Positions 41,905-64,000 are shown, counted from the first letter of the stretch. The stretch is 64,000 nucleotides of DNA from an uncultured delta proteobacterium (GCA_963812015.1 CAWETI010000002.1:1600001-1664000); one strand, 5' to 3'. Notes: a model not told the origin generated them from the letters alone. Made by a program: numbers and translations.

Positions 41905-41944
41905 CGGTTTTCTTATGTCCTCCTTGGGTGACCTAACGGGCCGC

Positions 41945-43966: not shown

Positions 43967-44002
43967 AAACAATCTCCTGAGCGCCTGATATCTTGCGCCG
44001 AA

Positions 44003-46368: not shown

Positions 46369-46430
46369 CACGCCCTCCATGCCAATAAGATAAGGAAGCC
46401 CAGGCTTCCCGAGGCATGATCCACCCGGAC

Positions 46431-46466
46431 AAAAAAAATCCTTGAGCCCATGTGGACCCAAGGATT
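46431..46466 (-). terminator. Riboswitch expression-platform terminator
   Basis: Minus strand AATCCTTGGGTCC-ACAT-GGGCTCAAGGATT followed by a U-run. Confidence 0.7.
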
Positions 46467-46559
46467 GCACCCAGTTTGCTTGATCCCTGGCTGGGCTGAG
46501 GAGATTTGCCATCTCTCCGCAGCCCCTGCATCCCCAATGCCTCGTTGGGGCGGCAGTTC

Positions 46560-46729
46560 AGCTTACAGGCAGGTCTTCTGACTCCCGGATCTTTCTACTC
46601 CCTGCGCCTTCCCGTCCTCTTAAGAAAGGATAGTGGCTTTGTGCAGGTTTCGTCCCCGGTTACAGCGGCGGGACCATGCCGGACTTGCACCGGCTTCCCT
46701 TTTAAGCCCTGACGGGCGCCTGTATGCTA
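46560..46729 (-). ncRNA. Cobalamin riboswitch
   Basis: Minus strand AAAAGGGAAGCCGGTGCAAGTCCGGC, CCCGCCGCTGTAA, GCCACT, GGGAAGG and the B12-box GAGTCAGAAGACCTGCC. Confidence 0.96.
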
Positions 46730-46777
46730 AATGTTGTGACCGATTATAAGCCCTCCTTTTATCTTGTCAATATTAAA

Positions 46778-48757
46778 TTAGGCAGGACTGAATTTTATCA
46801 GATCCTCAACTTGGGCCACCACTTCCGGGGCTCGCAGTTCCTGGATCTTATAGTATTTTGCCCCCAGCTTTTCGGCCAGCTCAGGGAGGCAGCTCAGGTT
46901 CAAAAACCCCGCCTCGGTGTCCAGGATCAGGGAGGCGATCTTTAAATCCTTCAGTCGGGCGGCCAGCTCTTTGGCTTCTTCTACCGCCGCCCCGCCGCCC
47001 AGACTGATATTGGCCTTGCCATCGGAAATCAATACCAACAGGAAGGCGTCTTGAGGATGCCGGGCCTTCTGCTTCTGAAGAATTTCATGGGCCAGATGCA
47101 GGGCCTGGGGGAGAGGGGTTTTGCCGCCGGTGGGGAGTTCTTCCAGACATTGTTGGGCTTGCTCCACGCTGTGGGTAAAGGGCAAGGCCAGGTGGGCGTC
47201 CTGTCCCCGGAAAACCACCAGCCCCACCTCCTCCCGTTTCTGATAGGCATCCAGGAGCATGGAGAGGATGGCGCCCTTGGTTTCCACCATCCGCTGATTG
47301 GCCCCCATGGAACCGCTGGCGTCCACGACGAACAGGATATGATGGCCGATGCGTTTTTCCCGCACCTTGTGGCGCAGGTCGGAATCCGTAATCGCCACGG
47401 CCAGGTTGCCTTTATCCCGCACAGTCTGGTGGGGGGCGGCGGCCCGCAAGGTGGCGTCCAGGGCCAGATCCGGCGGCCCGGCCGGGCTCATGGTGGGGCG
47501 CACATAACGACCGCTCCGGTTATTGGTCTGGGCCCGGGTCCGGCGCCCCTGGGACTCCTTGGACAGACGGTCGTGGGGCAGGTCCAGGGGGCGCACCGGG
47601 AAGGGCGAGCCGGCCTCAAAGGCAGTCTCCCCGCTTCCCGGAGGAGCGTCGGATGGGGGAGGGGGAGGAGGCTCCTCCGGGGGCGGAGAACCGTTTTCCG
47701 GCGGCGGATCGTGGTGATGTTCCTGCTGGTGTTTGCGGATGCTCTCCTCCAGCTTTTCCTGATCCAAACGTTGCTCACTGAGGGGTTTGCGGCGCATCCG
47801 ATGGGGCAACACCAACTCCGCGGCTTCCTGTACATCGGCTTCCGTTACTTCATGCCTCCCTTCCAGGGCCGCCAGGGTCCTCGCCACCTTGAGGATATAG
47901 ATATCCGCCCGGTGGCCGTCCACGCCTTGATCCAGGCAAATGCGGATGATCAGGCCCAAGATATCCGTAGTATGGCGCACCTGGGGCAGGCATTCCCGGG
48001 CCAGGCAGATCTCCTGGCGCAATCGCGCCTGTTCATCCCGCCAATCCCGAAAGAAGGCCGCCGGATCATCTTCGTAGGCTAACCATCGCTGCACCACTTC
48101 CATGCGGTCCCCCGGGTCTTGCAAGCCGCTCACCTCCACACAGAGACCGAACCGGTCCAGGAGTTGGGGCCGCAGTTCCCCTTCCTCCGGGTTCATGGTC
48201 CCCACCAGGATAAAACGGGCCGGGTGGGCGAAGGAAATCCCTTCCCGTTCCACGACATTGAGGCCCATGGCCGCAGCATCCAGGAGGACATCCACCAGAT
48301 GATCATCCAGCAGGTTGACCTCATCCACATATAAAATACCACGATGGGCCGCGGCCAGGATGCCCGGTTCGAAATGCTTTTCGCCGGTTTTGATCGCTTT
48401 TTCCAGATCAATGGTGCCCAGCAGGCGATCCTCCGTGGTGCCCAGAGGTAGGTCCACCACGGACATGGGCCGTTCCACTCCGGGGAGGTGTTGATGCTGC
48501 TGCAAATGCTTGAGGCAGGCTTGGCACATCTGCTGAGGTTGGTCCGGATCACAGTGGAAGGGACAGTCGGCCACCACCTTGATGGGGGGCAGCAACTCGG
48601 CCAGTCCCCGGGCGGCGGTGGATTTGGCAGTGCCTTTCTCGCCGCGGATGAGCACCCCCCCCAAACGGGGATTGACGGCATTGAGGATCAAGGCCTTCTT
48701 CAAGCGTTCCTGGCCCACCAGGGCCGCAAAGGGATAGGTGGGATGATTGTCGGTCAT
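46778..48757 (-). CDS. Class I chelatase AAA+/VWA subunit (ChlI-ChlD fusion type)
   Basis: [32 protein letters not shown], Pro-rich linker, VDASGSM MIDAS, GGKTPL. Confidence 0.9.
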
Positions 48758-51700
48758 TTCTTACCTCCTTGGGACAGAAAGGCGAGGGTTTTTTGCATGG
48801 CGGCTTTCCAGGAATCGACCTCGGAAGCGGTGACGATATCCACCGCCCCGCCCTGGAAATTGCTGCCCGCGGCCTCGCCCATATCTTCTTCCAGCCAACC
48901 TTCGATCTCTAAGTAAATCTGTTTCAGTTCCGCCAGGACCTCCGGGTCGGCCTCCCAGAGGCCCCGCTGCTCCGCCTCCAGGAGGCGCCGGGCGATCTCC
49001 TCCAGGGCCCAGGGGTTTTCTTTCTGGAAGAATTCCCGGTTTTCTTTATCCAAGACAAAGGTGCGGGTAATATCATCGAAGATCCAGTCGTCCACTTCCT
49101 GGGTGGTGGCCTCCCAGCCATAAACCCGGCCGACGCGTTTGCTGATCTCCCCGGCGCCTTTATAGCCGTGATTTTTCATGCCGTCGATCCACTTGGGGTT
49201 GAGCACCTTGGCCCGGGCCACCCGGCGGATCTCATCGGCCAGATCCCGGACGGTCACCCGCTCGGGGGAGCGGGTATCGCCATAATAGGTCTTGACCGGC
49301 TGCCCGGAGAGGTGCCGGGCCGCGGCCGTCAGACCGCCATGCGTCCCGAAATAGCCGCAGCAGCCGAACAGATCGTATTCATCCGTGACGGCCTTGTTAT
49401 ACGTCACCCTGGCGGTGCTTAAGCTATGGGCCAAGGCCTGGGGCGCCGGTTCTCCGAACACCCCCTTGCCATAGGCATAGCCGTTCCAATAGAGAAAAAC
49501 CTGGGCCAGGTCCGCTTCATCCTTCCAGGCGGAGGCATAAACCGCCAGTTGAGTCCCAGCAGAATAGGTGCCGGGTTGGCTGGCAAAGACGCGATAGGTG
49601 GCCTGGCGCCAGGCGGTGGAATCACCGGGGTCCTGGTCTAATTTCGCCATTAATTCAAGACTATGGCGTCGCAGAAAATTGTCCTCGAACTCTTCCGGCA
49701 AGGAGGCCACCGCCTGAATGGCCTCATCCACCAACTCGATACAATTGGAGAAATTGTCCCGAGTGATCCCGGAGACCCGGATGGTGACATCGATGCGGGG
49801 CCGGCCCAACTCAGTCAAGGGAATGATTTCAAAACCCTGCACCCGGCCGTTGCTCTGCCAAACCGGACGCACTCCGATGAGGTACATGATCTGGGCCATG
49901 CCTTCGCCGTCGGCCCACATGATGTCGTTGGCCATCCAAAAGAGGGCGACATTTTCCGGGTACTCGCCGTTTTCGGTCCGATATTTCTGGACAATGGCTT
50001 CGGCCAACCGTTTTCCTACCTCCCAGGCCCCCCGGCTGGGCACCCGCTGGGGGTCCAAAGAATAGAAGTTGCGGCCGGTGGGCAGGACATCATCCCGGCC
50101 GCGGGTAATCAACCCGGAGGGGCCGGGAGGAATAAAACCGCCGGAGAAGCCGTTGAGCAGGGCCTCCATTTCTCGGGACTCCTCCAGGCGGCGGGTAAGG
50201 TCCCGCAATCGCTCCTCAAAATGCTCGATCTCCGCCAGGCTGTCCTGATAACGCGCCGCTGCACAGGTTTCCTGGATGATCTTTGCCAAGGACTGGTCCA
50301 TCGCGGTGAGCCAGCGATTGATGATGGTGCGCCCAGCCTGGTCCACGGCCTCCTGGCCCCGGCCGGTTTCATCGTCATCGAGGGAAACCCCGGCCAAACG
50401 GCTTATGAGCCGGTTCCAGGAAGGTCCGCCGCTCACGGGAAAGCGGATGATGGCCTGGAGGAAATCCGCCCGCCGCTCTTCTTGGGGCAACTGGCCGAAG
50501 ATGTGCATGCCGTCCGGGATTTGGGTATTACGGATCAGGGACAGGCCGTCATGGATACGGTGCACCACCTGGTCAAAAGACATCTCCGGAGAGAGGGAAA
50601 TTTGCTGGCTGAGATGACTCTTCTCCAGGGATTCCAGAATGAGATGTTCCATCACGTGAGCCCGGCCCGGCTCGACGCTTTTCAGCCGCTCGTATTCCGC
50701 CAGCAAGCGGTCCAACTCGCCCATTTCGTCGTAGAGGCCGGCAGCGGTCATCACCGTTTGCATATGATCCACCAGGACAGCATAACTGCGGCGCTTGGCA
50801 ATGGTGCCCTCCGGCGGGTTGTCGGCGTTGTAGATATACAGATGCGGCAGATGACCCAAAGCGACATCCGGGCAGCAGCCTCCCGACAGCCCGGTAGACT
50901 TACCGGGGAGGAACTCCAAAGTGCCGTGGGTGCCCACATGTAGGACGACATCCGCCCCGAATTCCTTATCCAGATAATGATAGGTGGCGATATATTGGTG
51001 CGGCGGGGGTACATCAGGATCATGGAGAATCTTGCAGACCCGGCCGTCGCAGCGGGCCCCGGCGCAGCCCCGCTTGGGCTGGACGCAGAGCACGGCGTTG
51101 CCGTAAGCGATCCCGGTAATCACTATCTGCCCCTGGGAGACCATGGCGGCGGGGATACCGTTCTGTTCCCGGCCGGGCGGTTCCCCCCAGGCTTCCGACA
51201 GCCGCTGTTGCAGTGCCGGGGGAAATTCGCTAAACCAGCGGCGGTAGGTATCCTCCGATACCCGGGCCAGGGCGCCCCCCTTGGTGATGATCTCCTCCAC
51301 GGTGGTCCAGCGGAATTCACTGATGGCCTTGCGGCCCATGATGGTGTCGATCAGCTCTTTGCCGTCCGCCGGAGAATTTTCTATCCCATAGCCGGCCTGC
51401 TCCAGGATCTTCAGGAGGCGGGCCACGCTCTCCAGGGTATCCAGGTGCGCCCCCGCTCCCACCGTGGCTTCCACCGAGGCACAGGCGTTATTGTGCAAGA
51501 TGATGGCGATCTTGCGCTCGGCTGGAGGTTTGTCTTGCAGGCGGAGCCAGCGGGCCACCCGGTCGGCCAGACGTTCGGCCCGCTCGGCAATGGGCAGGCG
51601 GCCGGCGATGAGGTCCGCCTCCACCTCGGTTTGGGACATACCGGCCGCCACCAGCAAGGGTTCAATAACCCCCTCGAATTCCGGCAGCGCCAGGCTCCAA

Positions 51701-52629
51701 CCGATTTCCATCCCCAAGCCCTGGGGGTCGGATTCCCATTCCGCCGCGGTTTTGTAGTAGGAGGTCAATGGCTGGATCAGGGGGATATTAAGCCGGGCCA
51801 GCAATGCCTGGCTGGTTTGGGCCGTGCCACCCTGGCTGACGGTCCCCTTTTGGCTTCCCAGAAAGAAGGCGGTCAGCTTGATCAGGGCGGCTATCCGGGG
51901 GCGGCCTTGAGAATCAAAAAAATAATCCTGGATAATTTCCAGCCCGCCCCGAGTCCCTAAGCCTTCATCCTTAAGGGAATAATAGAAGACCGGGATCACC
52001 CCTATGCCGCGGCTCTCCAGGGCCTGGATGAGGAAATCGTCCAATTCCAGGTTACCCGTGGCCCAATCATGCCGGGAAAACATGATCCCGACCATGGTCT
52101 CGGTGGGGAGCCTCTGGCGCCGATACCAGTCCAGATAGTCGACCGCGTCGGTAAAAAACTGCCCGGCCCGGGGGTGATAGAACCCTTCCCAGGGCAGGTC
52201 CTCAGGGGGCAAGACCGCGAGGTCCAGGTGCAGCACTTCCTTACCGACATAGTTCAGCAGGCGGCGCAAATTTTCTAAGCCGTTGCGGATGATATATTGA
52301 TAAGCGTTGGCCGCCACTTCCAGGGGCACGGTGGAGGGACGCCACAGGGATGGATCGGAGCCGGTGGTAATCAGCGGTATCCGGGTGGAGAGATCTTTCA
52401 GGCGACTTTCCATCTGCTCCCAAAAGGCGTCCGGGGTGCGATATAACAGGATAAAATCCGCCGATTCCATGGCGTCGAGAGCCTGGGCCAGCTTCTCGGG
52501 ATTTTCTCCCACCATTCGATGTGAATAAACCTTGAGATCCAACCAGGGACAATCCCGGCTCGCCTGGTTGAGCAGGGGAACATAGGCGTTCCACATAACG
52601 GCTACACCTTTAATCGGCGTTGTGGTCAT
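48754..52629 (-). CDS. cobN: CobN-family chelatase large subunit
   Basis: 1291 aa; [64 protein letters not shown]. Confidence 0.9.
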
Positions 52630-53363
52630 TCGCTATACCTCTTTACGATAATGATCCCTAAAGCGATGCAGCCCAGCATATATACCGTCAGCACCATCAG
52701 CGAGCCCAACCCCGCCAGGGTCCAGGTGGGAAAGCGCAGCAGGTGGTTGGTATGGGTCAGGGGCAGGCAGTGGATGATCCCCCGGACCAGCCAGGGCATT
52801 TCATTCACCGGAAAGAAGGTGCCGCAGAAAAAAGCCATGGGCATAATCAGGAAGTTGGTGAAGGTGGCGGTATCTTCATGGGATCGGGACCTCATCCCCA
52901 CAATTACTCCCAGGGCGGCAAATAAGGCGCAGTTCAAGAGCAATGCCAGGATAAACATCAGGCTCATTTGAACGTGGCCGCCTAAAAGCCATCCCAGCCC
53001 CAATAAGATCAGGGAGGCGAACAGGCCCCGGGCCAAGCCGGCCAGTAATTCTCCCACCACAATAGCCGCGGCCGAAACCGGCGCCTGGACATAGACCTGA
53101 AAGGTGCGGAAATGGAGGCGGCCCACGGTCAGGCTGTTAGCCACCCAGGTATAGGCATTGGTCATGGAGCTCATGGCAATGAGCCCGGGCAGCAAGTAGT
53201 CCAGATAGGAAGTCCCCGGGATGGTCACCCGTTTGCCCAACCCCAGTCCGAAGGCCACGAGATAGAGCAGGGGGGCAAATAGGGCCGAGACCACGTAACC
53301 CAGGCGGAGCAAGCGGCGCTGGAAGAGCAGGATTTCCCGGTAAAAAATGGGGAACCAGTTCAT
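52626..53363 (-). CDS. ABC-2 type exporter permease
   Basis: YLDYLLPG, PMAFFCGTFFP, LPLTH. Confidence 0.85.
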   Translation of the reverse strand: MNWFPIFYREILLFQRRLLRLGYVVSALFAPLLYLVAFGLGLGKRVTIPGTSYLDYLLPGLIAMSSMTNAYTWVANSLTVGRLHFRTFQVYVQAPVSAAAIVVGELLAGLARGLFASLILLGLGWLLGGHVQMSLMFILALLLNCALFAALGVIVGMRSRSHEDTATFTNFLIMPMAFFCGTFFPVNEMPWLVRGIIHCLPLTHTNHLLRFPTWTLAGLGSLMVLTVYMLGCIALGIIIVKRYSE

Positions 53364-54196
53364 TGGGTCAGCCTTTCCCCGGTAAGCTGGATAAAGACGT
53401 CTTCCAGATTGACCTGCCGGATGATGACCTCACAATTTTCCGTCTGGGCGCAGGCGTAGGCCGTGGTTTTATCCTTTGCCAGGTGATACTCCCGTTTGCC
53501 GTTATGGGTGGATTCCACCACGTAGCCGCCCAGGCGGGCCACCAGGGTCGCAGGGGTATCCAGGGAGATGAGGCGGCCGCGGTTCAAGATGCCCACCCGG
53601 TCGCACAACATCTCGGCCTCTTCAATGTAATGGGTGGTGAGCACAATGGTAATCCCCTCCAGCTTGAGTTCCCGAATCAGGCTCCATAATTGCCGCCGGA
53701 CCTGGGGGTCTAATCCCACCGTGGGCTCATCCAGAAACAAAACCTGGGGACGAGAGATGAGGGCCCGGAGGATCAGGAGCCGTCGCTGCATGCCCCCGGA
53801 GAAGCCTTTGACCAAATGATGGGTTCGGGCGCTCAGGTCGCCGAAGTCCAAAAGCTCTTGGATCCGGTTTTTCAGATCGGGAACCCGGTAGAGCCGTCCA
53901 TAGATCCACAGGTTTTCATAGGCGGTCAGCTCCTTGTCCAGATTGATCTCCTGGGGACAGACCCCCAGGAGCCGCTTGACCTGGAGCGGTTGGCGCACCA
54001 CATCAAAGTTTTGGATTTGAGCCGTGCCCCGGGTGGGCCGAGCCAGGGTGGTCAAAATCTTAATCGTGGTGGTCTTGCCGGCCCCGTTGGGTCCCAATAA
54101 GCCGAAGATTTCCCCCGGGGGGATTTGCAAAGATAGACCCTCCAGGGCCACCACCTCCTGATACTCCTTGCCGAGATTGTCGGTAACGATCATCAT
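53360..54196 (-). CDS. ABC-2 type exporter ATPase
   Basis: GPNGAGKT, FSGGMQRR, LDEPTVGLDP, TTHYIEEA. Confidence 0.88.
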   Translation of the reverse strand: MMIVTDNLGKEYQEVVALEGLSLQIPPGEIFGLLGPNGAGKTTTIKILTTLARPTRGTAQIQNFDVVRQPLQVKRLLGVCPQEINLDKELTAYENLWIYGRLYRVPDLKNRIQELLDFGDLSARTHHLVKGFSGGMQRRLLILRALISRPQVLFLDEPTVGLDPQVRRQLWSLIRELKLEGITIVLTTHYIEEAEMLCDRVGILNRGRLISLDTPATLVARLGGYVVESTHNGKREYHLAKDKTTAYACAQTENCEVIIRQVNLEDVFIQLTGERLTQ

Positions 54197-54207
54197 ATTT
54201 ATGTCAG

Positions 54208-54975
54208 TTATGTTAGTTTGGGGTACAACAGCCTTTGGCCGCCCTGGCAGATCATGCCCACTTCCAGCCCGTAAAGATGGGCCATGGTTTCCGGACCGAT
54301 GACGTCCGCCGGGCGGCCCTGGGTCACGATCCGGCCGGCCGCCAACAGGATGACTTGATCCGCGAAAACCAGGGCCAGGTTGGGGTCATGAAGGGTCAGT
54401 AACACCGTCAGCCCCTGTCGATGAGCCAGATTCCCGATCAATTGCAGGATCATCACCTGATTCCTAAAGTCCAGGTGGTTGGTGGGTTCATCCAAAAGCA
54501 ATACCTGGGGCTCCTGGGCCAGGCACCGGCCCAGCAAGGCCAGTTGCCGCTCGCCGCCGCTGATCCGGGTATACGGCTTGTCCGCCAAATGTTTGATTCC
54601 CAGGAGTTCGATAATCTCCGTTACCACTTCGCGATCCCGGGCCCCCGGCTGGGACCAGAATCCCACCCGGGAGAGCCGGCCCAAGAGCATCACCTCCCGG
54701 ACGGTGTAAGGGAAAACCGGGTGATGCTCCTGGGGCACAATCGCCAGCACCTGGGCCAGGTCCCGGGTCTTGAGCTCTGCGAGGGGCCGGTCGGCCAGCA
54801 CGATGTCTCCCTGGAGGGGGATTATCTGGGCGCTGAGGCTCAAAAGGAGGGTGGTCTTCCCCGAGCCGTTGGGCCCCAGGAGGACCGTGACTTCCCCCGG
54901 CCGCGCCTTAAGGTTCACCTGGTGGAGAATGAGCTGGCCGTTGAGCCGGACGCTGAGATCGTTTACGGCAATCAT
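54208..54975 (-). CDS. Metal-chelate ABC importer ATPase (FecE-like)
   Basis: GPNGSGKT, ISGGERQL, LDEPTNHLD, LHDPNLA. Confidence 0.88.
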   Translation of the reverse strand: MIAVNDLSVRLNGQLILHQVNLKARPGEVTVLLGPNGSGKTTLLLSLSAQIIPLQGDIVLADRPLAELKTRDLAQVLAIVPQEHHPVFPYTVREVMLLGRLSRVGFWSQPGARDREVVTEIIELLGIKHLADKPYTRISGGERQLALLGRCLAQEPQVLLLDEPTNHLDFRNQVMILQLIGNLAHRQGLTVLLTLHDPNLALVFADQVILLAAGRIVTQGRPADVIGPETMAHLYGLEVGMICQGGQRLLYPKLT

Positions 54976-55964
54976 AGGCTCCAGGATTCCGCCCCGCCCC
55001 GCTTCAAGAGATAAATGAAGAAAGGGGCCCCGAACAGGGTGGTGATGATGCCCACCGGGATTTCTCCTCCCACGATGGTGCGGGCCACCGTATCGGAGAG
55101 CACCATGAAGCTGGCGCCCGCGGCCATGGACAGGGGGATGACTCGCCGGTGGTCGGGCCCCACCAGCATCCGGACTATATGGGGGATCATCAGACCCACC
55201 CAGCCGATGATCCCGGTGACGGAAACCGCCGCAGCCACCGTCACCGCCGCGGCCAGGATAAACAGCCCCCGTTCCCGGCCCACATCCACCCCCAGGGCCC
55301 GGGCCTCAGCGTCTCCCATGGACATGGCATTGAGGCGCCAGCGCCCCAGCCAGATGAGGACGGCTCCCGCCAGGATCCAGGGCCCCGCCTGGCGTACCGC
55401 CCGCCAGTCGGCCTGGGACAGGCTCCCCATGAGCCAGAAGACGATGCTGGCCAGCTTCATGGGGTCCACCATAAACTTGATAATGGAGACCAGAGCTGTA
55501 AAGAAGGCGGACACCACCACCCCGGAGAGGATCAGGGACAGGGTCGGGACCTCCCGGCGGGTTCGGGCCAGGGTGAAAGCCAGGAAGGCCGCGATCAGGC
55601 TGAAGATAAAGGCTCCCACTTGAATGGGCAGGGCTGGGACCAAGGCCACGGAGAGGGCGCAGCCAAAGGCCGCCCCGGCGGATAACCCCAGGATAAAGGC
55701 GTCCACCAGGGGGTTGCGGAACACGGCCTGAAGGGTGGCGCCGGAGGCCGACAGGCCCAATCCCACCAACATCCCCAGGACAATGCGGGGCAGCCGGATA
55801 TCAAAGACGATGCTCTGGATCTGCACTTCTTTGCCGTGACCGGATGCGAGCACGTGCCACCAGGCCCGCCAAGGCACCGGGTAGGCCCCCACCTGCATCG
55901 CCATGAGGAAGGCCGGTAAGGGGGAGAGCAACAGCAGCCAGTAGACCCAGGTGCGGGGCCTCAC
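54972..55964 (-). CDS. Metal-chelate ABC importer permease (FecCD family)
   Basis: IRLPR, RNPLVD, IGWVGLMIPH, EIPVGI; GTG start overlaps the upstream stop. Confidence 0.88.
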   Translation of the reverse strand: MRPRTWVYWLLLLSPLPAFLMAMQVGAYPVPWRAWWHVLASGHGKEVQIQSIVFDIRLPRIVLGMLVGLGLSASGATLQAVFRNPLVDAFILGLSAGAAFGCALSVALVPALPIQVGAFIFSLIAAFLAFTLARTRREVPTLSLILSGVVVSAFFTALVSIIKFMVDPMKLASIVFWLMGSLSQADWRAVRQAGPWILAGAVLIWLGRWRLNAMSMGDAEARALGVDVGRERGLFILAAAVTVAAAVSVTGIIGWVGLMIPHIVRMLVGPDHRRVIPLSMAAGASFMVLSDTVARTIVGGEIPVGIITTLFGAPFFIYLLKRGGAESWSL

Positions 55965-56956
55965 GGCGTCTCCTCGTAAGGGATACCGAAACATTCCCGG
56001 TAGAAGCTATCAGCGGCCTGACGAAACTCCGCCGGGGAGATCTCTTGGGGAAAAAAGCAGTGGGCCATCCACCAGGCCAGGACCACCACTCGGGGCGACC
56101 AAGTAGAAGACCGGTCGGCCTTAAACACCCGGCCCGTTTTCACCGCCTGGACGTTCTGCCACTTGGGGTCCCTTAGCAGGTCGGCGACCCCGTAGGAGGC
56201 GGAACCCCAGATCAGCACCACTTCGGGATTGAGGTCCACCATAGTTTCCATGGACAGTTCCTGGTTGAAGTTATCCACCTTGCCGCCCAGGTTGATCCCC
56301 CCCGCCAGGGTGATGAGCTCCCCCACCACCCCTTTATTGCCGGTGATGGTGGTGGGCTTGCCCCAGAGCCACACCACCCGGGGGTGGGCCGCGGCCGGGA
56401 TTCCCGCCAGGCGTTGCTTCAAGGCCTCGAAGTGACGGGCCATCAACTGCGTCACTTTTTCGGCCCGCTCGGCCTGCCCCAAAAGCCTTCCTATTCGCAG
56501 GGTGTCCCGGCGGATATCATCCAACCCCTCGGGATAGAGGGTGAACAAGTGGAATCCCTGACGCCGCAAAAAATCCACCTGCTCCGGTCTGCGGTCCCAG
56601 GTCACCACCATGTCGGGCTTCAGGGCCATCAGGGCCTCCACGTTGGCGACAAACCCGGTGCCCGGCGAGGGAATCTCCTGGAGATGGGGCACCACCCGTT
56701 TCAGCAAATCATTGTCATAGGCGTACCGGGAAATCCCCACGATGCGATCCCAGGCCTGGAGCGCTGCTACGGTTTCATAGAATTCGAAGAGGACCACCCG
56801 GTGCGCCTCCTGGGGAGAGTTGCCCCCCGGGGGGCCCAGGGGGCACGGCCTCTCGGGAAGGGCCCCCTGGATGGGCCCGGTGAGGCCCAGGAGCAGCACC
56901 AATCCGCCCATCGCCCAGGCCCACCGGGAAGTTTTGGAGATTCTGTCAGCCATCAA
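55961..56956 (-). CDS. Class III (iron-chelate/B12-type) substrate-binding protein
   Basis: Signal peptide, NVEALMALKPD, AGGIN, AVKTGRVF. Confidence 0.8.
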   Translation of the reverse strand: MMADRISKTSRWAWAMGGLVLLLGLTGPIQGALPERPCPLGPPGGNSPQEAHRVVLFEFYETVAALQAWDRIVGISRYAYDNDLLKRVVPHLQEIPSPGTGFVANVEALMALKPDMVVTWDRRPEQVDFLRRQGFHLFTLYPEGLDDIRRDTLRIGRLLGQAERAEKVTQLMARHFEALKQRLAGIPAAAHPRVVWLWGKPTTITGNKGVVGELITLAGGINLGGKVDNFNQELSMETMVDLNPEVVLIWGSASYGVADLLRDPKWQNVQAVKTGRVFKADRSSTWSPRVVVLAWWMAHCFFPQEISPAEFRQAADSFYRECFGIPYEETP

Positions 56957-56972
56957 TTGCCTGCTCCTTGCC

Positions 56973-59309
56973 TCAATATTTCAGCGTCAGCATGCTCCAG
57001 ATGGTCCGGCCGGGAGTCCGGTAGTAGTAGTAGTATTCCCGGTTAAGGATGTTATCCACCGCAAAGGACATGTCCACATACTTCACCGGGCTAAAGATTA
57101 TTTTTGAATTCAGGGTGAAGAAAGGATCGTAGGCGCCGTAAACCCCATAGACAGAATCGCCGTTGTCATCCCGGGCCGTCAGTCTGGAGGCATAACGGCC
57201 TGAAAGGTTGGCCTTGACCTTCCAGTAGGAAGCCGTGACCCCAAAGTTGAATTGCTGCCGGGGGGTATAGGTGAGATTTTTGCCCACCGTGACCGGATTA
57301 TAGGGGTTGTTCCTGATCCTGGGGTCCACCAGGGTGGTGTTGCCGAAGACTTCCAGCCAGGACCAGAGCTTCTGGTTAATTTCTATCTCCACCCCTCGAA
57401 TCTGGGCCTTGGCGGCATTAAAATAATTCTGGGTCTTGCCCGTTGGATCGGTAGGATCAGTAGTCCGGTAAATCAAGTCCTTGACGAAATTTTGAAAATA
57501 GGTGGCGGTGAACGTGGTCCCTTTAAAGGGTTTCAGGGTGGTGCCGACCTCCCAGGAGAGGGCGGTCTCGGGTTTGAGATCGGGGTTGCTCTTATACAGG
57601 GTGCCGGTGCTGGACTGCCAGGTGACGTAGAGTTCGTAAATATTGGGGGCCCGGAAGGAGCGGCCCACCGAGGCTTTCCAGGTCATCCAGTCCCAGGGGC
57701 GGTAGAGCGCGGCGAGCTTGGGGCTGACCGCAGTTTGGTCCCGGCTGGGCAGGTCCACAATGGGAGTGCCGGTGGCCTTCATGTAACTGCCCCCAAAGGT
57801 CTCCCACCGATCCAACCGCACCCCCAGCACCGTATTGAACTTGGGATGCCAGGCGATTTCATCCTGAAGATAGGCCCCGATATTGCTGTCCCGGCCGCCG
57901 CCCAGGGAGCTGAAGTTTATATACGAACCGGGACTGCGCCAGTTGTACAGGTTATACTGCGAGTTGCGCGCCCAGCCGGCATTGTAGGAGAGGCCGCCCA
58001 CGAACTGCTGCTTCTGGCCGATGGCCTGGTCCACCTGCACCTCCCCCACCCAATTCTGACTGGGAGTGCTGGACACGGTCCCCGGGCCGCCGCCGAAGGT
58101 GGTCAGGGCGCTGGTGGAACTGGGCGTGGTGTACCAGTTTTCCGGCTGGTTCACCAGGCCGAAATGGGACTTGAGTTTCGTGGTTTCCGTAAGCTTGTTT
58201 TCGGACGTCAGGTTGTATACTTGGGTATTGTTGCGTCCATCGCCGTTGCAAAAGAGGCCTTGCTGGAGACTGCTGAATTGCGTGTTGGTGCCTAACAAGC
58301 CGACGGTGCCACTAGTCACCCTGGCGCCAGTGGCTGAATTGTTCAAATAGGAATGGTACATGTCATAGCCATAGTCGTAATAGCTCTGCAAGGTGCTGAA
58401 CTCCACCTTATGGCCCGGGGCAATATCCCAGCTGATTTTGCCGTTGAAGCTGTAATCATTCCAGTTATTATCGCCGGTATCGCCGATGGTGTTCGTCCAG
58501 CCGCCGGTGGTCGTCTGGGTGGGTTGCCAGCCCAACACACTGGTTTTGGTCGTCTTGGCTAAGGCGGCGGTGGTTTTTTGCACCAGGCTGGTGGGATAAC
58601 CGGTGGAGATACGATAATTGAATCCCGCCTGGATGCTTACTTTATCCCAGAGACGATCGCCCGCCCCCAGGTAGTAGGTCCAGGCATCGTAGGTGCCGTA
58701 ACCGCCCTGGGCCAGCATTTCCAGTTTCTGGGGGGTCTTGGTGATGATGTTGATGACCCCGCCCATGGCGCTGCCGCCGTAGAGGGCGGAGAACGGCCCT
58801 CGGATCACTTCGATCCTTTCGATATTCTCCACCGGTATGCTATTCCAGATCACAGTGTTGGTGTAGGCGGTGGAGACATTCTGGCCATCCAGCAAGATCA
58901 GGGTGCGTTTCTGGTTATCTCCGGGAAAGCCCCGGAGATTCACATTAGCCAGGGTGTCCTGCCAGCCCTTGCCCCGGCGGTCGAAGGCCCCGGGGACCTG
59001 GGCCAGGGCCTCGTCCACCGTCTGGATGTTCTGTTTCTTAATGTCCTCTTTGGTGATGATCGTAATGCTAGCCGGGACGTCGTCCGGATTCCTCTCGGTC
59101 CGTGTGGCCGTCACCACAATCTTCTCCAAGGCCTCGGCCTTTTCTTTCGGAGCCGGGGCGGGAGCTGGGGTTGCCGCCTTTTTACCTTCATCCGGGTCCA
59201 CCACCGTCACCTTGTCCTCTGCTTCCTGGGCCCACGCCGGGGACTGCACCCCGAGGGTCAATACGCACGAGAACGCCATAATCACTCCAAACCAGAGCCC
59301 ACGCCGCAT
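56973..59309 (-). CDS. TonB-dependent receptor (substrate unknown)
   Basis: Signal peptide, IVVTATR TonB box, IERIEVIRGPFSALYG, NPDLKPE, C-terminal aromatic residue. Confidence 0.92.
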   Translation of the reverse strand: MRRGLWFGVIMAFSCVLTLGVQSPAWAQEAEDKVTVVDPDEGKKAATPAPAPAPKEKAEALEKIVVTATRTERNPDDVPASITIITKEDIKKQNIQTVDEALAQVPGAFDRRGKGWQDTLANVNLRGFPGDNQKRTLILLDGQNVSTAYTNTVIWNSIPVENIERIEVIRGPFSALYGGSAMGGVINIITKTPQKLEMLAQGGYGTYDAWTYYLGAGDRLWDKVSIQAGFNYRISTGYPTSLVQKTTAALAKTTKTSVLGWQPTQTTTGGWTNTIGDTGDNNWNDYSFNGKISWDIAPGHKVEFSTLQSYYDYGYDMYHSYLNNSATGARVTSGTVGLLGTNTQFSSLQQGLFCNGDGRNNTQVYNLTSENKLTETTKLKSHFGLVNQPENWYTTPSSTSALTTFGGGPGTVSSTPSQNWVGEVQVDQAIGQKQQFVGGLSYNAGWARNSQYNLYNWRSPGSYINFSSLGGGRDSNIGAYLQDEIAWHPKFNTVLGVRLDRWETFGGSYMKATGTPIVDLPSRDQTAVSPKLAALYRPWDWMTWKASVGRSFRAPNIYELYVTWQSSTGTLYKSNPDLKPETALSWEVGTTLKPFKGTTFTATYFQNFVKDLIYRTTDPTDPTGKTQNYFNAAKAQIRGVEIEINQKLWSWLEVFGNTTLVDPRIRNNPYNPVTVGKNLTYTPRQQFNFGVTASYWKVKANLSGRYASRLTARDDNGDSVYGVYGAYDPFFTLNSKIIFSPVKYVDMSFAVDNILNREYYYYYRTPGRTIWSMLTLKY

Positions 59310-59512
59310 TTGCACTCTCCTTCCGCTTTGAGTTTGCGCCTCGGCCCTGGTTCTGATAGAAAAAGAGTGGGCCGATCTTCCGCATTGAGGATTGGTCTGA
59401 AGGAGGGGCTGGGACTCTTGGCGGGGTGCCGCCCCTCCTTCCTGTTACCGCATTCTTTCTATTAAGACCTCTCTGCCGTCAGGACCCTGTCAGCCTCGGC
59501 CCTCACCAGGCG

Positions 59513-59654
59513 AAAAAAAAGACCACGATTATCAAGCGGCGTTTTGCCGCCAGACCTTCGTGGCCATTCAAATACTTCTGAGAATTTTAGCTATCCGAAA
59601 GGGCTTCATGCCCTTCGACGGTTTCTATATAGCCCCTCCCGCAGGTGCTGTCAA
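59513..59654 (-). promoter_or_regulatory. Leader A: promoter + tandem AYGAA-loop hairpins + intrinsic terminator (candidate attenuator)
   Basis: TTGACA(59654-49)-17-TATATA; AAGGGC-ATGAA-GCCCTT (59615-599); GGCC-ACGAA-GGTC (59565-553); GGCCACGA/TCGTGGTC stem then T8. Confidence 0.8.
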
Positions 59655-59717
59655 GCAATAATCCGGGGCAGTCAAAAGCACATGCAGGTTTCTCGCCTTT
59701 CAGGATTCTTTGATCGG

Positions 59718-59860
59718 GGTGATGTCCATTAAATTGTGGAAATTTGTCTCAGGTTTTTACCCCTACAGTTCTTGTTGAGCATTTGGATGATGCCATACAG
59801 GATACGGTCGGAGCTGGCCTCATTGGTGAAACAGTTGTTCATGGGTCGGGTGCGCCGGGG
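59718..59860 (-). mobile_element. IS256-family remnant (transposase C-terminus and end)
   Basis: Minus strand translates RRTRPMNNCFTNEASSDRILYGIIQMLNKN, followed by the IR-like TCCACAATTTAATGGACATCACC. Confidence 0.65.
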
Positions 59861-59956
59861 TTCCCCAGCCGTGGTGAAGGCCAACTTCAGCGAATATTTA
59901 CAACGGCATCTCTGATCATTCAGCTTCCGCAGGCGACCTAACCCGCTTCCTGGGGG

Positions 59957-60145
59957 TTATTTCTCCACAAGAACGATTCTATGGTTCACCAGATTAAGCC
60001 GGTGGATGTCAGCCCTGATAACTCTTTGTTCGCCGAAAATGTTGACCACGCGCAGACCGTCCCCTTCGGGTTCGATGATGTCTACATCCGCCAACAATAA
60101 TTCCTCTTGACCGTTTTTCATAACATAAGCGGTAGCTTCACACAT
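59957..60145 (-). CDS. cooT: CooT-family nickel-binding protein (Sm-like fold)
   Basis: 62 aa starting MCE, with E.LLLADVD...NIFGE...NLVNHRIVL pattern. Confidence 0.85.
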   Translation of the reverse strand: MCEATAYVMKNGQEELLLADVDIIEPEGDGLRVVNIFGEQRVIRADIHRLNLVNHRIVLVEK

Positions 60146-60605
60146 GTTTCATCACCTCTCTTAAGCGTTGGGTAATAACTTTCTCCACCAAGTGGGGCAG
60201 GGGTTCGGGAACTAGCCCCACAATCTCCACCCGAGCCCGGGTTAAGGGCAGGAGAAGCTTAGGAGCCGGGGCCAACAAGATGGCCTCGGCTATGTGGGGT
60301 GTAACTTCCCCCATCATGGCGTGGGCTAAAACGATAGATAGGGTTCCCAGGATTGCGTGCGCTTGGGGGACTGTTTGGACAATGGCATTTTCGCCGCTAG
60401 CTCCCCGGTTGGCCCTGGCCTTCATCATTTGGGCTGTGGCCACGGCGTTGGTCCCCAGCGCGATAATTTCGTATTCTTCTCCGTACTCCTCCTTTAGACG
60501 TTTAATAAGAGCTACGCCGATGCCGCCCCTCTGGCCGTCAATGACACAAATGCGAGGTCTGTTCCCTTTAAAGGTAGACCTGATTTCTCCTTGGGCTCCT
60601 GTCAT
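60138..60605 (-). CDS. DUF3842 family protein
   Basis: VIDGQ.GGIG, ALGTNAVAT..MMKA.ANRGASGENAI, MMGEVT; AGGAG RBS; overlaps cooT. Confidence 0.85.
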   Translation of the reverse strand: MTGAQGEIRSTFKGNRPRICVIDGQRGGIGVALIKRLKEEYGEEYEIIALGTNAVATAQMMKARANRGASGENAIVQTVPQAHAILGTLSIVLAHAMMGEVTPHIAEAILLAPAPKLLLPLTRARVEIVGLVPEPLPHLVEKVITQRLREVMKHV

Positions 60606-60700
60606 GCGGTCTCCTGAACCAGACATCGGGGAATGTCGACCTCCCGTAAATCCCAGGAGGCGGTGACTGGACTAAGCAAAATTATTGATATGCGTCCACT

Positions 60701-61537
60701 TCAATCATTGCTCAGACGAAATGCCAGGGGGACTTCGATGGTCAACTTCTGGCGGTTGAGTTCGGCTGGGAAGGGAGGAAATTTCCCCACCCGGCGCAGG
60801 GTATTCTGGGCAGCCTCATCCAGAAGGTCCTGACCTGAGGAGCGGCTGATCCGCGCACCTTCGATTTGCCCCCCGGAGCCGATAGTAAACACTAGCGCTA
60901 CTACTCCTTGAATATTGCGGCGGCGGGCTATGAGGGGATAATCTTTCTGCTTTTCCAACAGCCGGCGAACCTCTTTGAGATAGCCTTGGAGCGCCGAACC
61001 GGCGCCTGAGCCCGGCCCCTGGCCTTGGCCAATACCACCGCCGGCCCCGTCCCCCCGTCCCCCGCCTTGGCCCCCCTCGCCGGTGCCCGAAAGGCCGCCC
61101 GGGCCACTGGTCCTGCTTCTGGTGATCGCGGTATCAGAGGGTTTAGCCCTGGTGATCGCGGGTGGCGGCGCCGGCGTAGGGATCACCGGTCCTGCGACGG
61201 GTTCCGGCGGCGGCGCCGGTTTGACCTTGGGCCGCGGTTTCGGCTTAACCTCAGGTTTGGACGGGGGGGAAACCGGCGGCGGTTTGGGGGTGGCGGGCTC
61301 AGGCCGGGTCACGGGGCCGGGCCGGCCGCCGCCACCCCCGGCGGGTCCCGATTTGAAGGGGACCAGGGCGATGGCTTCCACCGGCACCACCACCCGGGGT
61401 TTCGATGGTCTTTCGTGAAAAGCAAGGATCACCGCGACCACAATCAGGACATGAACGACCACGGAACCCACTATGCCCCAGGACCAGGCGCCTCGAGAAT
61501 TCCAGGGCTCGTCTAACCCTTGGTAACCGCTGGCCAT
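60701..61537 (-). CDS. tonB: Energy transducer TonB
   Basis: N-terminal TM with SxxxH, Pro/Gly-rich linker, YP..ARRRNIQG, SSG..LLDEAA. Confidence 0.9.
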   Translation of the reverse strand: MASGYQGLDEPWNSRGAWSWGIVGSVVVHVLIVVAVILAFHERPSKPRVVVPVEAIALVPFKSGPAGGGGGRPGPVTRPEPATPKPPPVSPPSKPEVKPKPRPKVKPAPPPEPVAGPVIPTPAPPPAITRAKPSDTAITRSRTSGPGGLSGTGEGGQGGGRGDGAGGGIGQGQGPGSGAGSALQGYLKEVRRLLEKQKDYPLIARRRNIQGVVALVFTIGSGGQIEGARISRSSGQDLLDEAAQNTLRRVGKFPPFPAELNRQKLTIEVPLAFRLSND

Positions 61538-61539
61538 GG

Positions 61540-61935
61540 CTATTTCTGGTCTACCTCGATGCCAATGCGCTGGACCTTCAGACCCCGGAGGCGGTCAATG
61601 ACTTCAATGAGCCGCCCGTGGCGGGTGTCCGTATCCGCGGCAATAATGGCTTGGGGCTCCTTCCCCTGGTGCTGGGCCGCAAACACCTTTTCAAAATCGT
61701 CATCTTTTGTCAGCTTTACCCCATTGACCGCGATATGACCTTCCCGGTCGATGCTGATGATAATGGGGACGCTTTCCAACTTGTCGGCCTGGGTGGCTTT
61801 GGGCAAGGCGATGGCGAAGGTCCGGGGCATCATTACCGTGGCCGCCAACAGAAACACGATGAGGATGACCAGAACGATATCCACGAAGGGGGTCATGTTA
61901 ATTTCGGTGATAGGCCCGTGAATGTTGCCTTTCAT
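61540..61935 (-). CDS. exbD: Biopolymer transport protein ExbD
   Basis: EINMTPFVDIVLVILIVF; IAAD. Confidence 0.92.
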   Translation of the reverse strand: MKGNIHGPITEINMTPFVDIVLVILIVFLLAATVMMPRTFAIALPKATQADKLESVPIIISIDREGHIAVNGVKLTKDDDFEKVFAAQHQGKEPQAIIAADTDTRHGRLIEVIDRLRGLKVQRIGIEVDQK

Positions 61936-62627
61936 ACCGTTCTCCCGGCTTGCCGGACGGAGGGGAAGAGGTCTTTATCGGGAGCGGCGATTTCCCCGGT
62001 CCCAGCCGCGTCATCCAGGTGGGCCAACAGCAGTTGCTCCAGAAACCGGCAGCGCTCCTGGACCACGTGCAGGCGGCGATGAAAAAAATTGAACATCATC
62101 ACCGCGGGAATAGCTACCAGCAACCCGATGGCGGTGGCCACCAGGGCCTCGCCGATACCAGCCATCACCGCGGGGCCGCCGCCCCCTTCGGTCAGGGCTA
62201 AATCTTTGAAGGCATGAATAATCCCCAGAACAGTGCCGAACAGGCCGATGAACGGCGCATTGGCTCCCAGGGTCCCCAGGAAACTCAAGCGCCGCCCCAG
62301 AAAGAGACCCACCCGGATCCGCTCACCCTCCATGATGTCCTGGACTGCACTCTTGCCCCGGGGAATTTCCCGGAGGCCGGCCACCAGCACCCGGGCTTCC
62401 ATGCCGGGTTCCGCCTCACACCGGGACATGACTTGGGGCCAGTCGCTTTGCCGCAGCAACGGTTCAATCTCAGCCACAAAAGATTCGAGATTGAACCGGT
62501 AACGATAGAAAGCCAAAGCCTTGTCGAAAATGATCGCCAGAGAAGCGACGCTCAACCCCAAGAGCAGCCACAGCACCCAGGCGCTACCGCCCAGGGCTAT
62601 ATTAAGCAGGGCCTTGGTTATGTCCAT
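61932..62627 (-). CDS. exbB: Biopolymer transport protein ExbB
   Basis: APFIGLFGTVLGII and GIGEALVATAIGLLVAIPA; GGAGG RBS before ATG 62627. Confidence 0.92.
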   Translation of the reverse strand: MDITKALLNIALGGSAWVLWLLLGLSVASLAIIFDKALAFYRYRFNLESFVAEIEPLLRQSDWPQVMSRCEAEPGMEARVLVAGLREIPRGKSAVQDIMEGERIRVGLFLGRRLSFLGTLGANAPFIGLFGTVLGIIHAFKDLALTEGGGGPAVMAGIGEALVATAIGLLVAIPAVMMFNFFHRRLHVVQERCRFLEQLLLAHLDDAAGTGEIAAPDKDLFPSVRQAGRTV

Positions 62628-62638
62628 GCATCCTCCCG

Positions 62639-62789
62639 AAAAAAAACAAGCCATGCTGCTGCGATCCTTCCGGACCGCGGTTGCCTTCATGGCTTGGATT
62701 CACTCTATTGAGTTGCTTAGTTCGATCTTCAGGGAGTTCAATCTCCCTGGATAGCAAAAATTATAGTTCTCCTCTGCATCGGATGTCAA
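62639..62789 (-). promoter_or_regulatory. Leader C: promoter + tandem A(U)UGAA-loop hairpins + intrinsic terminator (candidate attenuator)
   Basis: TTGACA-18-TATAAT; CAGGGAG-ATTGAA-CTCCCTG (62749-730); GCC-ATGAA-GGC (62693-683); perfect 9-bp CAAGCCATG/CATGGCTTG stem then T8. Confidence 0.8.
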
Positions 62790-62860
62790 CCAGAATCGTT
62801 TTGCAGGCTCACCCGGTGGAAACGATGGCTTGCTTGGTTTCCTTCCCGTTAAATTATTGT

Positions 62861-63006
62861 TTGACAACATCTCCGTACGACGCTATATAAATGGGAAATT
62901 ATCGGGGGGCATGAAGCCTGCCCGCATAGAAGAGCTCGCAAACAGGTTTTAATTGGCCACGAAGGTCAGGCGGCAGAACGCCGCGTGATTTTCGTGGCTT
63001 TTTTTT
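62861..63006 (+). promoter_or_regulatory. Leader B: promoter + tandem AYGAA-loop hairpins + intrinsic terminator (candidate attenuator)
   Basis: TTGACA-17-TATATA; GGGC-ATGAA-GCCT (62907-919); GGCC-ACGAA-GGTC (62955-967); GCCACGAA/TTCGTGGC stem then T8. Confidence 0.8.
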
Positions 63007-63047: not shown

Positions 63048-64000
63048 ATGGCAAGGGCAGCAATTCTTATTTGTACTTGCATGATTTGGACAGCCCTTAG
63101 CGCCTGGGGGTGCTGGGCAATTGGAACCGCTTGCGCCGAGGACGCGTCGGGGGGAACTGTCCCCACGGTGACCTCTTCTCCCGAGACGGGCAAGACCCCA
63201 AAGGACACGGCCCAATTGCCCGAGATAGTGGTGCAGGAGCGCAGCGACAGTATGCTCGGCATTGCTGATACCTCGACGCAGGGAACGATTGGCGCCAAAG
63301 AACTGATGGATCGCCCCATCTCGCGTCCCGGAGAGGTGCTCGAGGCCATGCCCGGAGTCATCGTCACCCAGCATAGCGGTGACGGCAAGGCAAACCAGTA
63401 CTTCCTGCGGGGCTTTAACCTCGATCACGGCACCGATCTGGCTACCTTTGTCAACGGGATTCCCATCAACCTGCCGTCGAACGCCCATGGGGAAGGGTAC
63501 ACGGATCTTAATTTTCTCATTCCTGAACTGATCCAGAGAATAGACTACCAGAAAGGACCCTACTTCGCAAACGTGGGTAACTTCGGCTCCGCGGGCTCTG
63601 AAGACATTGTGTACTTTCAGAAGCTTCCCGCCGGGATTGCAAAAGTCGAATACGGAAGCTGGAACTATGAGCGCGCGTTGCTGGCCGACTCGGTGAAGCT
63701 CGGGCCGGGCAACTTCCTCTTCGCCCTTGAAACACAGCACACCGACGGGCCATGGTCAACCCCCGAAAATTACATAAAGTTCAATGGATTGCTGACCTAT
63801 AGCCAAGGGGACAAGAGCAAAGGCTTCAGCGTGACAGCCATGGGCTATCACGCCCCCACGTGGAATGCGACCAACCAGATCCCTGCGCGCGCAGTCGCGG
63901 AAGGGCTCATCTCGCGTTTCGGAAACCTCTCCCCCTCGGACGGCGGTTATACGGACCGCTATACCCTGCAGGGTGAATGGCACCAGGCCGATAAGGACTC
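63048..64000 (+). CDS. TonB-dependent receptor, predicted Ni/Co-type family (partial; runs off the window and is absent from the ORF track)
   Basis: Manual translation: MARAAILIC signal, LPEIVV TonB box, RPGEVLEAMPG, TQHSGDGKANQYFLRGFNLDHGTD, NAHGEGYTDLNFLIPEL, KGPY. Confidence 0.88.
   Translation, partial: MARAAILICTCMIWTALSAWGCWAIGTACAEDASGGTVPTVTSSPETGKTPKDTAQLPEIVVQERSDSMLGIADTSTQGTIGAKELMDRPISRPGEVLEAMPGVIVTQHSGDGKANQYFLRGFNLDHGTDLATFVNGIPINLPSNAHGEGYTDLNFLIPELIQRIDYQKGPYFANVGNFGSAGSEDIVYFQKLPAGIAKVEYGSWNYERALLADSVKLGPGNFLFALETQHTDGPWSTPENYIKFNGLLTYSQGDKSKGFSVTAMGYHAPTWNATNQIPARAVAEGLISRFGNLSPSDGGYTDRYTLQGEWHQADKD

Follow-up and report, generated by a model that had tools for sequence, protein, structure and literature searches.

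A family of attenuator RNAs, apparently uncatalogued, before nickel (or nickel/cobalt) uptake genes in at least four bacterial phyla

A 64,000-nucleotide (nt) stretch of the genome of an uncultured delta proteobacterium (GCA_963812015.1, CAWETI010000002.1:1600001-1664000; the window hereafter) carries three leader RNAs in which a small hairpin (hairpin 1) is followed by another one (hairpin 2) that shares its bases with an intrinsic terminator. These leaders belong to what is apparently an uncatalogued and widespread family of attenuator RNAs for the uptake of nickel (or nickel/cobalt). It is an RNA family with two mutually exclusive folds, with a regulon, and with a distribution over at least four phyla. 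On balance, the element is probably a factor-dependent transcription attenuator for the acquisition of nickel, possibly nickel/cobalt, that is read by a protein, for which CooT, with or without DUF3842, is the best candidate. We infer from the sequence that the reader is a protein, as well as its identity, the metal sensed, and the direction of the response.

Three Leaders of the Same Design in the Window

An earlier note on the window had described one leader design shared by three transcription units. A promoter, hairpin 1, hairpin 2, and a terminator are present in all three, which are designated here as leaders A, B, and C.

59626..59654, minus strand: leader A promoter, TTGACA-17-TATATA, read off the sequence
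59595..59621, minus strand: leader A hairpin 1, loop AUGAA at 59609..59605, from the minimum free energy (MFE) fold and the alignment columns
59553..59565, minus strand: leader A hairpin 2, GGCC-ACGAA-GGUC, -4.3 kcal/mol, overlapping the 5' arm of the terminator, from folding energy and covariation
59513..59565, minus strand: leader A intrinsic terminator, -26.4 kcal/mol, with an inner hairpin and U8 at 59520..59513, from folding
62760..62789, minus strand: leader B promoter, TTGACA-18-TATAAT, 12/12, from the promoter scanner
62730..62749, minus strand: leader B hairpin 1, CAGGGAG-AUUGAA-CUCCCUG, from the sequence and the MFE fold
62683..62693, minus strand: leader B hairpin 2, GCC-AUGAA-GGC, -4.0 kcal/mol, from folding energy
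62639..62695, minus strand: leader B terminator, -23.8 kcal/mol, with an inner GCGGUCC-GGAA-GGAUCGC hairpin and then U8, from folding
62861..62889, plus strand: leader C promoter, TTGACA-17-TATATA, read off the sequence
62903..62924, plus strand: leader C hairpin 1, loop AUGAA at 62911..62915, from the MFE fold
62955..62967, plus strand: leader C hairpin 2, GGCC-ACGAA-GGUC, -4.6 kcal/mol, from folding energy
62955..63006, plus strand: leader C terminator, -33.4 kcal/mol, U8 at 62999..63006, from the terminator scan and folding

The near-consensus promoters could be read as described, TTGACA with spacers of 17, 17, and 18 nt before TATATA, TATATA, and TATAAT. The promoter scanner requires T at the last position and thus missed both TATATA boxes. 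The loops were also as claimed, AUGAA, AUGAA, and AUUGAA for hairpin 1 and ACGAA, ACGAA, and AUGAA for hairpin 2. Counted on the sequence, the spacing from the loop of hairpin 1 to that of hairpin 2 is 48 nt in leader A, 52 nt in leader B, and 48 nt in leader C; the two values of 48 nt stand, and the value of 51 nt given earlier for the exbBD leader (leader B) is corrected. Likewise, the terminators of the two leaders for TonB-dependent receptors (TBDRs), A and C, do match each other, at 38 of 44 nt instead of the 39 of 44 reported.

All three leaders have hairpin 1 and the long terminator, with U8 behind it, as their MFE fold (z-scores against shuffled sequences of -3.3, -3.7, and -4.6). The signature of an intrinsic terminator, a G+C-rich stem and U8, is found in all three, and the U run is kept in alignment columns 157-162. 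The sequence CCAYGAAGG forms either hairpin 2, with 3-4 bp and the loop AYGAA, or the 5' arm of the terminator. The two folds share the bases CCAYGA and are mutually exclusive. Hairpin 2 alone has -4.0 to -4.6 kcal/mol, versus -23.8 to -33.4 kcal/mol for the terminators that use the same bases. With this gap, hairpin 2 would lose unaided, and the terminator would be the default fold unless hairpin 2 is held.

Copies, Conservation, and Covariation

Judged by the source names of homologous proteins, the host belongs to Desulfobaccales (phylum Desulfobacterota); its genome is 99.86% complete. The first copies were found with a simple pattern, and a covariance model, R1, was built from seven copies of the same genome (alignment A1). 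R1 placed seven strong matches on this genome, with E-values from 1e-18 to 1e-24, and one weak match. These E-values and the conservation in relatives exclude chance. The four copies outside the window precede genes for a NikMN (CbiM-PDGLE)-Q-O transporter, a Phenol_MetA_deg porin-like protein next to cbiK, a second ExbBD-TonB set, and a third TBDR.

Hairpin 1 is missing from the weak eighth copy (21.7 bits, E = 0.1), which does contain GCCACGAAGGCC, a terminator, and a U tract. This copy maps to G000:C3:1061519-1061648 (plus strand, L002 at about 5020-5150), ~490 nt beyond nikO, and a small membrane-protein frame starts opposite it.

Of 61 related genomes, the present one among them, R1 detected the motif in 55, with 1 to 8 copies each: in 35 of 36 genomes of the family, in all 14 of the sister family, and in 5 of 10 from other families of the phylum. 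A second model, R2, was built from 41 aligned copies from 33 sources (alignment A2). R2 found the motif in 27 of 151 genomes sampled evenly across the phylum, 21 of which are outside the order. A pattern scan for GCCAYGAAGGY in one genome per species (set A6) returned at least 123 stretches, and 80 of them were fetched. Among the matches listed, which is the scope of all pattern-scan counts below, 60 of these 80 stretches contain an R2 match, and the copies include those from Nitrospirota, one Acidobacteriota genome, and Bacillota (Thermovorax subterraneus and gut Clostridiales). Of five genomes that have DUF3842 and are negative for the motif, three contain variant copies that score below the threshold; one of these copies has UACC-ACGAA-GGUA as hairpin 2, which is a further case of covariation.

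The G-A-A of loop 1 is invariant in all 41 copies of alignment A2. So is CC-A-Y-G-A-A-GG, with the pentaloop AYGAA as loop 2 in every copy. Set A6 was selected for GCCAYGAAGGY, and its loop 2 is therefore fixed by construction and uninformative on this point. The 3' arm of the terminator and the U tract are strongly, not invariantly, kept, and the linker is variable in length without any conserved position. In distant copies, both loops are ANGAA (AUGAA, ACGAA, AAGAA, or AGGAA) closed by C-G. The earlier note had asked whether loops and geometry are conserved, and both are kept, as is the sharing of bases with the terminator, at loci of at least four phyla, whether these are homologous or not.

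The stems, called covariation-like from the three leaders, covary in alignment A2. The closing pair of hairpin 1 is GC in 12 copies, CG in 6, UA in 4, UG in 3, AU in 2, GU in 1, and unpaired in 12. Terminator pair 88-151 is CG (34), UA (6), or UG (1). In hairpin 2, positions 84 and 94 pair in every one of the 41 copies (GC 34, GU 4, AU 3), and pair 83-95 is AU in 21, GC in 7, GU in 3, and unpaired in 9. Neither the observed covariation score nor the observed percentage of paired positions was reached in any of 500 shuffles, and sliding the register lowers pairing from 86-88% to 26-50%. Because the copies are related to each other, the shuffle statistics overstate their independence, which tells against relying on them too far; they are supportive, not proof.

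By a strict rule, hairpin 1 was found in 100 of 133 distinct copies with 95 different stems, and its loops were AUGAA (34), AAGAA (15), ACGAA (7), and others. The 33 copies failing the rule partly have bulged stems or GGA loops, and are partly seemingly without hairpin 1. From loop to loop, the distinct copies span 17-79 nt, with 48 nt as the median. GAA is also found in the apex loop of the terminator, in 62 of 124 copies (UGAA 13, AGAA 13, ACGAA 7, AGGAA 4), far above the expectation for a loop of 4-5 nt. In the window, such apex loops are at 59541-59537, 62671-62668, and 62975-62979. The apex hairpin is compatible with hairpin 2 and lies only a few nt from it, and its loop may be a third site of the reader.

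As the earlier note had supposed, the element corresponds to no named Rfam family. Searches against Rfam 15 gave no match on any copy of the motif, at the gathering score for the window and for 13 loci from four phyla, and up to E = 10 for the region. In the literature searched, which included PMC11247825, PMC2667541, and PMC6006190 and did not extend to subscription papers, we saw neither this RNA nor any RNA-binding activity of CooT or DUF3842 described.

Regulon and Metal

In the window, the leaders precede the following genes.

46778..59315, minus strand: operon A, a TBDR, a periplasmic binding protein, a FecCD permease, two ABC ATPases, an ABC-2 permease, a CobN-like chelatase, and a ChlI/D-like AAA-VWA protein, from Pfam
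59957..62627, minus strand: operon B, exbB (61932..62627), exbD (61540..61935), tonB (60701..61537), DUF3842 (60138..60626), and cooT (59957..60145), from Pfam and translations
63048..63998, plus strand: gene C, a second TBDR (Plug domain), cut by the window end, from Pfam

Judged from their predicted products, the genes downstream of the element are a nickel/cobalt acquisition regulon. Among 41 copies, the first downstream gene codes for a Phenol_MetA_deg porin-like protein in 11, CbiM/NikM in 7, a TBDR in 6, DUF3842 (then CooT) in 5, ExbB in 3, and DUF4198 in 3; two have no family and four were not scanned. Loci L007 and L017 (short open reading frames only), L015 (locus end), and the second copy in L014 were left out of the gene tally. 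In 64 pattern-scan copies, the first genes were CbiM (7), TBDR (6), SAM methyltransferases (5), DUF4198 (4), porins (4), and DUF6802 (3), followed by ExbB, PDGLE, Peripla_BP_2, ECF S-components, and TP_methylase (2 each) and by SBP_bac_5, BPD_transp_1, FmdE, DUF3842, CooT, a transposase, and a beta-propeller protein (1 each), while 18 had no family. NikA/NikB-like ABC parts account for two of the 64. The regulon of TonB-dependent uptake proposed earlier thus stands in kind and was too narrow in scope, as NikMNQO/CbiM, DUF4198, porins, and DUF3842-CooT also belong to it.

The SAM methyltransferases (Methyltransf_11/25, UbiE-like) are the first gene at L079, L086, L089, L094, and L095. These loci come from Desulfobacterales and Clostridia, and the methyltransferases have no evident link to nickel uptake.

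The metal is probably nickel, possibly nickel/cobalt. Nickel is favoured because of the NikMN-type CbiM-PDGLE fusions, DUF4198, the NikA/NikB-like ABC parts, and CooT, and because the corrinoid salvage genes of the window are under their own cobalamin riboswitch. CobN, cbiK, TP_methylase, and adjacent cobalamin riboswitches make this assignment uncertain and keep cobalt in play.

The cobalamin riboswitch of the window (46551-46738, minus strand, 119.9 bits) comes directly after the CobN operon. It controls separate genes at 39165-46512, which encode a BtuB-like TBDR, a CbiZ-BtuF fusion, a second binding protein, a FecCD permease, and an ABC ATPase. Cobalamin riboswitches are also found within ~1 kb of an attenuator, on the same strand, in Acidobacteriota locus L129 (144-329, with the attenuator at 1137-1257) and in Bacillota locus L134 (322-518 and 1-115, with the attenuator at 1190-1322). 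These transport loci may be under combined control by B12 and metal.

The distribution of NikR, the usual nickel repressor, is complementary. NikR_C was found in none of 51 genomes of the motif-bearing order, and it was found in an outgroup genome without the motif and in 5 of 14 control genomes. It seems from this pattern that the attenuator stands in for NikR.

CooT and DUF3842 as Candidate Readers

The cooT product matches PF10133 with 85.4 bits (cut-off 27) and PDB entry 6fan at E = 2e-13, and its neighbour matches DUF3842 (PF12953) with 173.4 bits (cut-off 28.5). According to PMC6006190, each CooT dimer binds one Ni(II) through Cys2 (Kd 9 nM). All 34 homologues aligned here have this cysteine.

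DUF3842 and CooT are always adjacent and have the same presence profile, in 56 of the 61 relatives. The motif and the pair occur together in 53 relatives, the motif alone in 2, the pair alone in 3, and neither in 3. The gene order motif-DUF3842-CooT-motif-uptake gene is seen in at least nine genomes. In the phylum sample, DUF3842 is present in all 27 motif genomes, versus 56 of 151 (37%) overall. For 55 pattern-scan motif genomes, both genes were found in 49, CooT only in 1, DUF3842 only in 2, and neither in 3, so that at least one of the two is present in 52; L064, L105, and L124 were left out of one 50-locus search behind this tally. Some genomes are common to the relatives set and the pattern-scan set, and these tallies are therefore not independent.

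This genome has a second DUF3842-cooT pair, in the row rsmD (Cons_hypoth95)-coaD-DUF3842-cooT (L063, 6719-8393, equal to G000:C2:1086718-1088392), following leuD-leuB-asd and away from nickel enzymes. The model search placed no attenuator copy at this region.

As readers, CooT and the adjacent DUF3842 are the strongest candidates. We tentatively propose, as a real possibility short of a probable one, that CooT, either alone or together with DUF3842, senses nickel and acts as an RNA-binding antiterminator, and is not primarily a maturation chaperone of CO dehydrogenase. Several observations weigh against this proposal. The CooT-only genome is a 6.0-Mb Acidobacteriota genome in long contigs, with the arrangement motif-TBDR-periplasmic binding protein-FecCD-ABC-CooT and then motif-exbBD-tonB; the DUF3842-only genomes are two Bacillota metagenome-assembled genomes (MAGs); and the three genomes with neither gene are MAGs of unknown completeness. 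Neither protein is thus universal in the data. The CooT of the window is net acidic (7 K/R versus 11 D/E), which is unusual for an RNA binder. Its structure paper reportedly called the fold Sm-like and saw no RNA binding. The fold in the AlphaFold2 (AF2) model of DUF3842 (pLDDT 93.5) is Rossmann-like and generic, and it offers no link to RNA binding. VIA-align found for it only generic Rossmann-like neighbours with Z of 9.8 or less, Foldseek against the Protein Data Bank (PDB) gave no match at E <= 0.001, and a PDB sequence search returned nothing. Moreover, co-occurrence cannot separate a regulator from a target, because DUF3842-CooT is itself a target of the motif and a co-regulated chaperone would show the same pattern. 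The label "predicted RNA-binding protein" given to these proteins by JGI is annotation only and counts as no evidence.

The same facts would fit a reader other than CooT and DUF3842, in which case the two would only be co-regulated nickel-handling proteins for chaperoning or storage. The pair is positioned after the motif as any target gene would be, both genes are missing from three motif genomes and one of the two from three more, CooT is acidic, and the fold of DUF3842 is generic. We nevertheless consider another protein rather unlikely. No other candidate was found: CAT_RBD was not found, CsrA is absent from 20 of 50 motif genomes, and ANTAR had 0 matches, as in the controls. At least one of CooT and DUF3842 accompanies the motif in 52 of 55 genomes, set against 37% for DUF3842 in the phylum sample. 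In addition, the second pair sits in a housekeeping operon, far from any nickel enzyme.

The RNA as the Sensor

The RNA itself could sense Ni2+/Co2+ or a small ligand through its GAA loops, without any protein. The strong conservation of the loops across four phyla is compatible with such a riboswitch, and the apex GAA loop in 62 of 124 copies could allow loop-loop packing. Metal riboswitches that dock their loops exist, with yybP-ykoY as an example. However, conservation is limited to the two or three small loops and the pairs that close them, with no junction or internal loop to make a pocket, and the linker is unconserved with the loops 17-79 nt apart. The two loops are alike, as sites of an oligomeric protein would be. 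A metal-stabilised hairpin 2 would also turn the uptake genes on in the presence of metal, which is the wrong direction. A riboswitch is therefore improbable in our view. A pattern of two or three identical small loops on variable stems, with an unconserved linker, is characteristic of the binding sites of an oligomeric protein and not of a ligand pocket, and a protein reader is preferred.

Comparison with Known Systems

The attenuator resembles the hairpin recognition of the ANTAR and CsrA types and, as far as its predicted structure tells, is a member of neither family. It shares with the ANTAR leaders (the targets of EutV, NasR, and AmiR) the tandem hairpins with similar loops, the last of which shares the 5' arm of the terminator, as well as stems that vary while the loops are conserved, and, as proposed here, protein binding that leads to read-through. 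In ANTAR leaders, the linker between the two hairpins is short. ANTAR sites are reportedly hexaloops with A at position 1 and G at position 4, a rule said to come from Ramesh et al. 2012. Here, the loops are ANGAA pentaloops (A1, G3), the hairpins are a median of 48 nt apart instead of a few nt, and the regulon is for metal uptake. The earlier note had likewise seen the overlap with the terminator as ANTAR logic and the loops as departing from the rule, and both points hold: all 41 copies have a pentaloop as loop 2, loop 1 has five nt in most copies as well, and only AUUGAA of leader B fits the hexaloop rule. The ANTAR family (PF03861) had 0 matches in the 99.86%-complete genome, in a search that also gave 0 matches in 14 control genomes.

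The likeness to CsrA/RsmA targets lies in A-N-G-purine-A loops closed by C-G, and in two sites at variable spacing that would fit a small homodimer. CsrA and CooT are both homodimers of about 60 residues, and CsrA dimers bridge two ANGGA loops at variable spacing. In contrast, the loops here are GAA and never GGA (41 of 41), and the read-out is an intrinsic terminator. This genome has two csrA genes. CsrA was present in 30 of 50 motif genomes and absent from 20, including several large contiguous ones. CsrA was rejected as the reader on these grounds, the GAA loops and its presence in only 30 of 50 genomes.

A divergent ANTAR or CsrA target is very improbable. The tandem-hairpin logic with terminator overlap, the A at position 1 and G at position 4 in loop 1 of leader B, the two csrA genes, and the ability of CsrA to span two ANGGA loops would suit it. 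The uniform pentaloop with GAA, the 0 ANTAR matches (weak evidence, with 0 in the controls as well), and the patchy occurrence of CsrA do not.

Other known systems are more distant. The NikR regulon of other bacteria is the same, consisting of NikABCDE or NikMNQO, TBDRs, and ExbBD-TonB; nickel-loaded NikR binds DNA operators, whereas the element here would act on nascent RNA after initiation. The NiCo (czcD) riboswitch also governs metal homeostasis through a terminator in the 5' leader. It has a conserved four-way junction and switches on efflux genes, whereas no conserved junction is found here and the genes are for uptake. In PyrR and TRAP systems, a ligand-loaded oligomeric protein picks between leader folds at an intrinsic terminator. 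Their loaded form promotes termination, whereas binding to hairpin 2 must here prevent it, and their RNA sites are unrelated.

That there is no RNA switch at all, and the leaders are a leader-peptide attenuator, a DNA operator, or a plain insulating terminator, deserves hardly any credence: a 13-codon frame opens in loop 1 of the three leaders and hairpin 1 is an inverted repeat near the promoter, but the frame has 7 codons in paralogue L003 and 20 in L002 and is open to the printed end in L001, the 95 stems in 100 copies vary around a fixed centre, which is the opposite of an operator, and a plain terminator leaves the invariant CCAYGAAGG and the covarying hairpin 2 unexplained.

The 13-codon frames of the window, starting from AUG, UUG, and AUG in loop 1, are at 59609-59568, 62741-62700, and 62911-62952. 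As their length is lost in the paralogues, they are treated as a coincidence of shared spacing, and the leader peptide was rejected. An antiterminator formed by loop 1 and the 3' arm of the terminator was also rejected; judged by eye, it is possible in leaders A and C, not in leader B.

Proposed Mechanism

In the attenuator model favoured here, transcription would start at the strong sigma-70 promoter, and by default the terminator would fold and stop transcription at U8, ahead of the uptake genes. Under scarcity of the metal, the ANGAA loops of hairpins 1 and 2 would be recognised by a factor acting in trans, most likely an oligomeric protein, which may also recognise the apex loop of the terminator where present, in about half of the copies. 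Holding hairpin 2 would withhold the 5' arm of the terminator, and the polymerase would read through. This direction of response is suggested by the incompatibility of hairpin 2 with the terminator and by the genes being for uptake. If CooT is the reader, its apo dimer, alone or with DUF3842, would bind the ANGAA loops, and Ni(II) at Cys2 would release the RNA. In lineages without NikR, the homeostatic outcome would be the same as that of NikR.

Another Hairpin in TBDR Leaders

Downstream of the leader A terminator and ahead of the TBDR start, the window (59330-59470, minus strand) contains a further long hairpin, GGAAGGAGGGGC...GCCCCUCCUUC. The arms of this hairpin look like a Shine-Dalgarno sequence and its complement. 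Four other TBDR leaders retain it (L003 8400-8540, L005 1680-1760, L006, and L031), and the Rfam search of the region up to E = 10 gave no match for it. It may add a translational layer of control.

Implications

The attenuator appears to be the main switch of nickel (or nickel/cobalt) uptake in strict anaerobes without NikR, with several copies per genome in at least four phyla. Its regulon points to new uptake components, namely the Phenol_MetA_deg, OprB, and BBP2 porins, DUF4198, and DUF6802, and also to CobN-linked TonB systems and SAM methyltransferases. If CooT is indeed the reader, it would represent a new class of metal sensor that acts on RNA and replaces NikR in Desulfobacterota, Nitrospirota, Acidobacteriota, and Clostridia. 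DUF3842 would then gain a function, and the roles of both CooT and DUF3842 would be directly testable.

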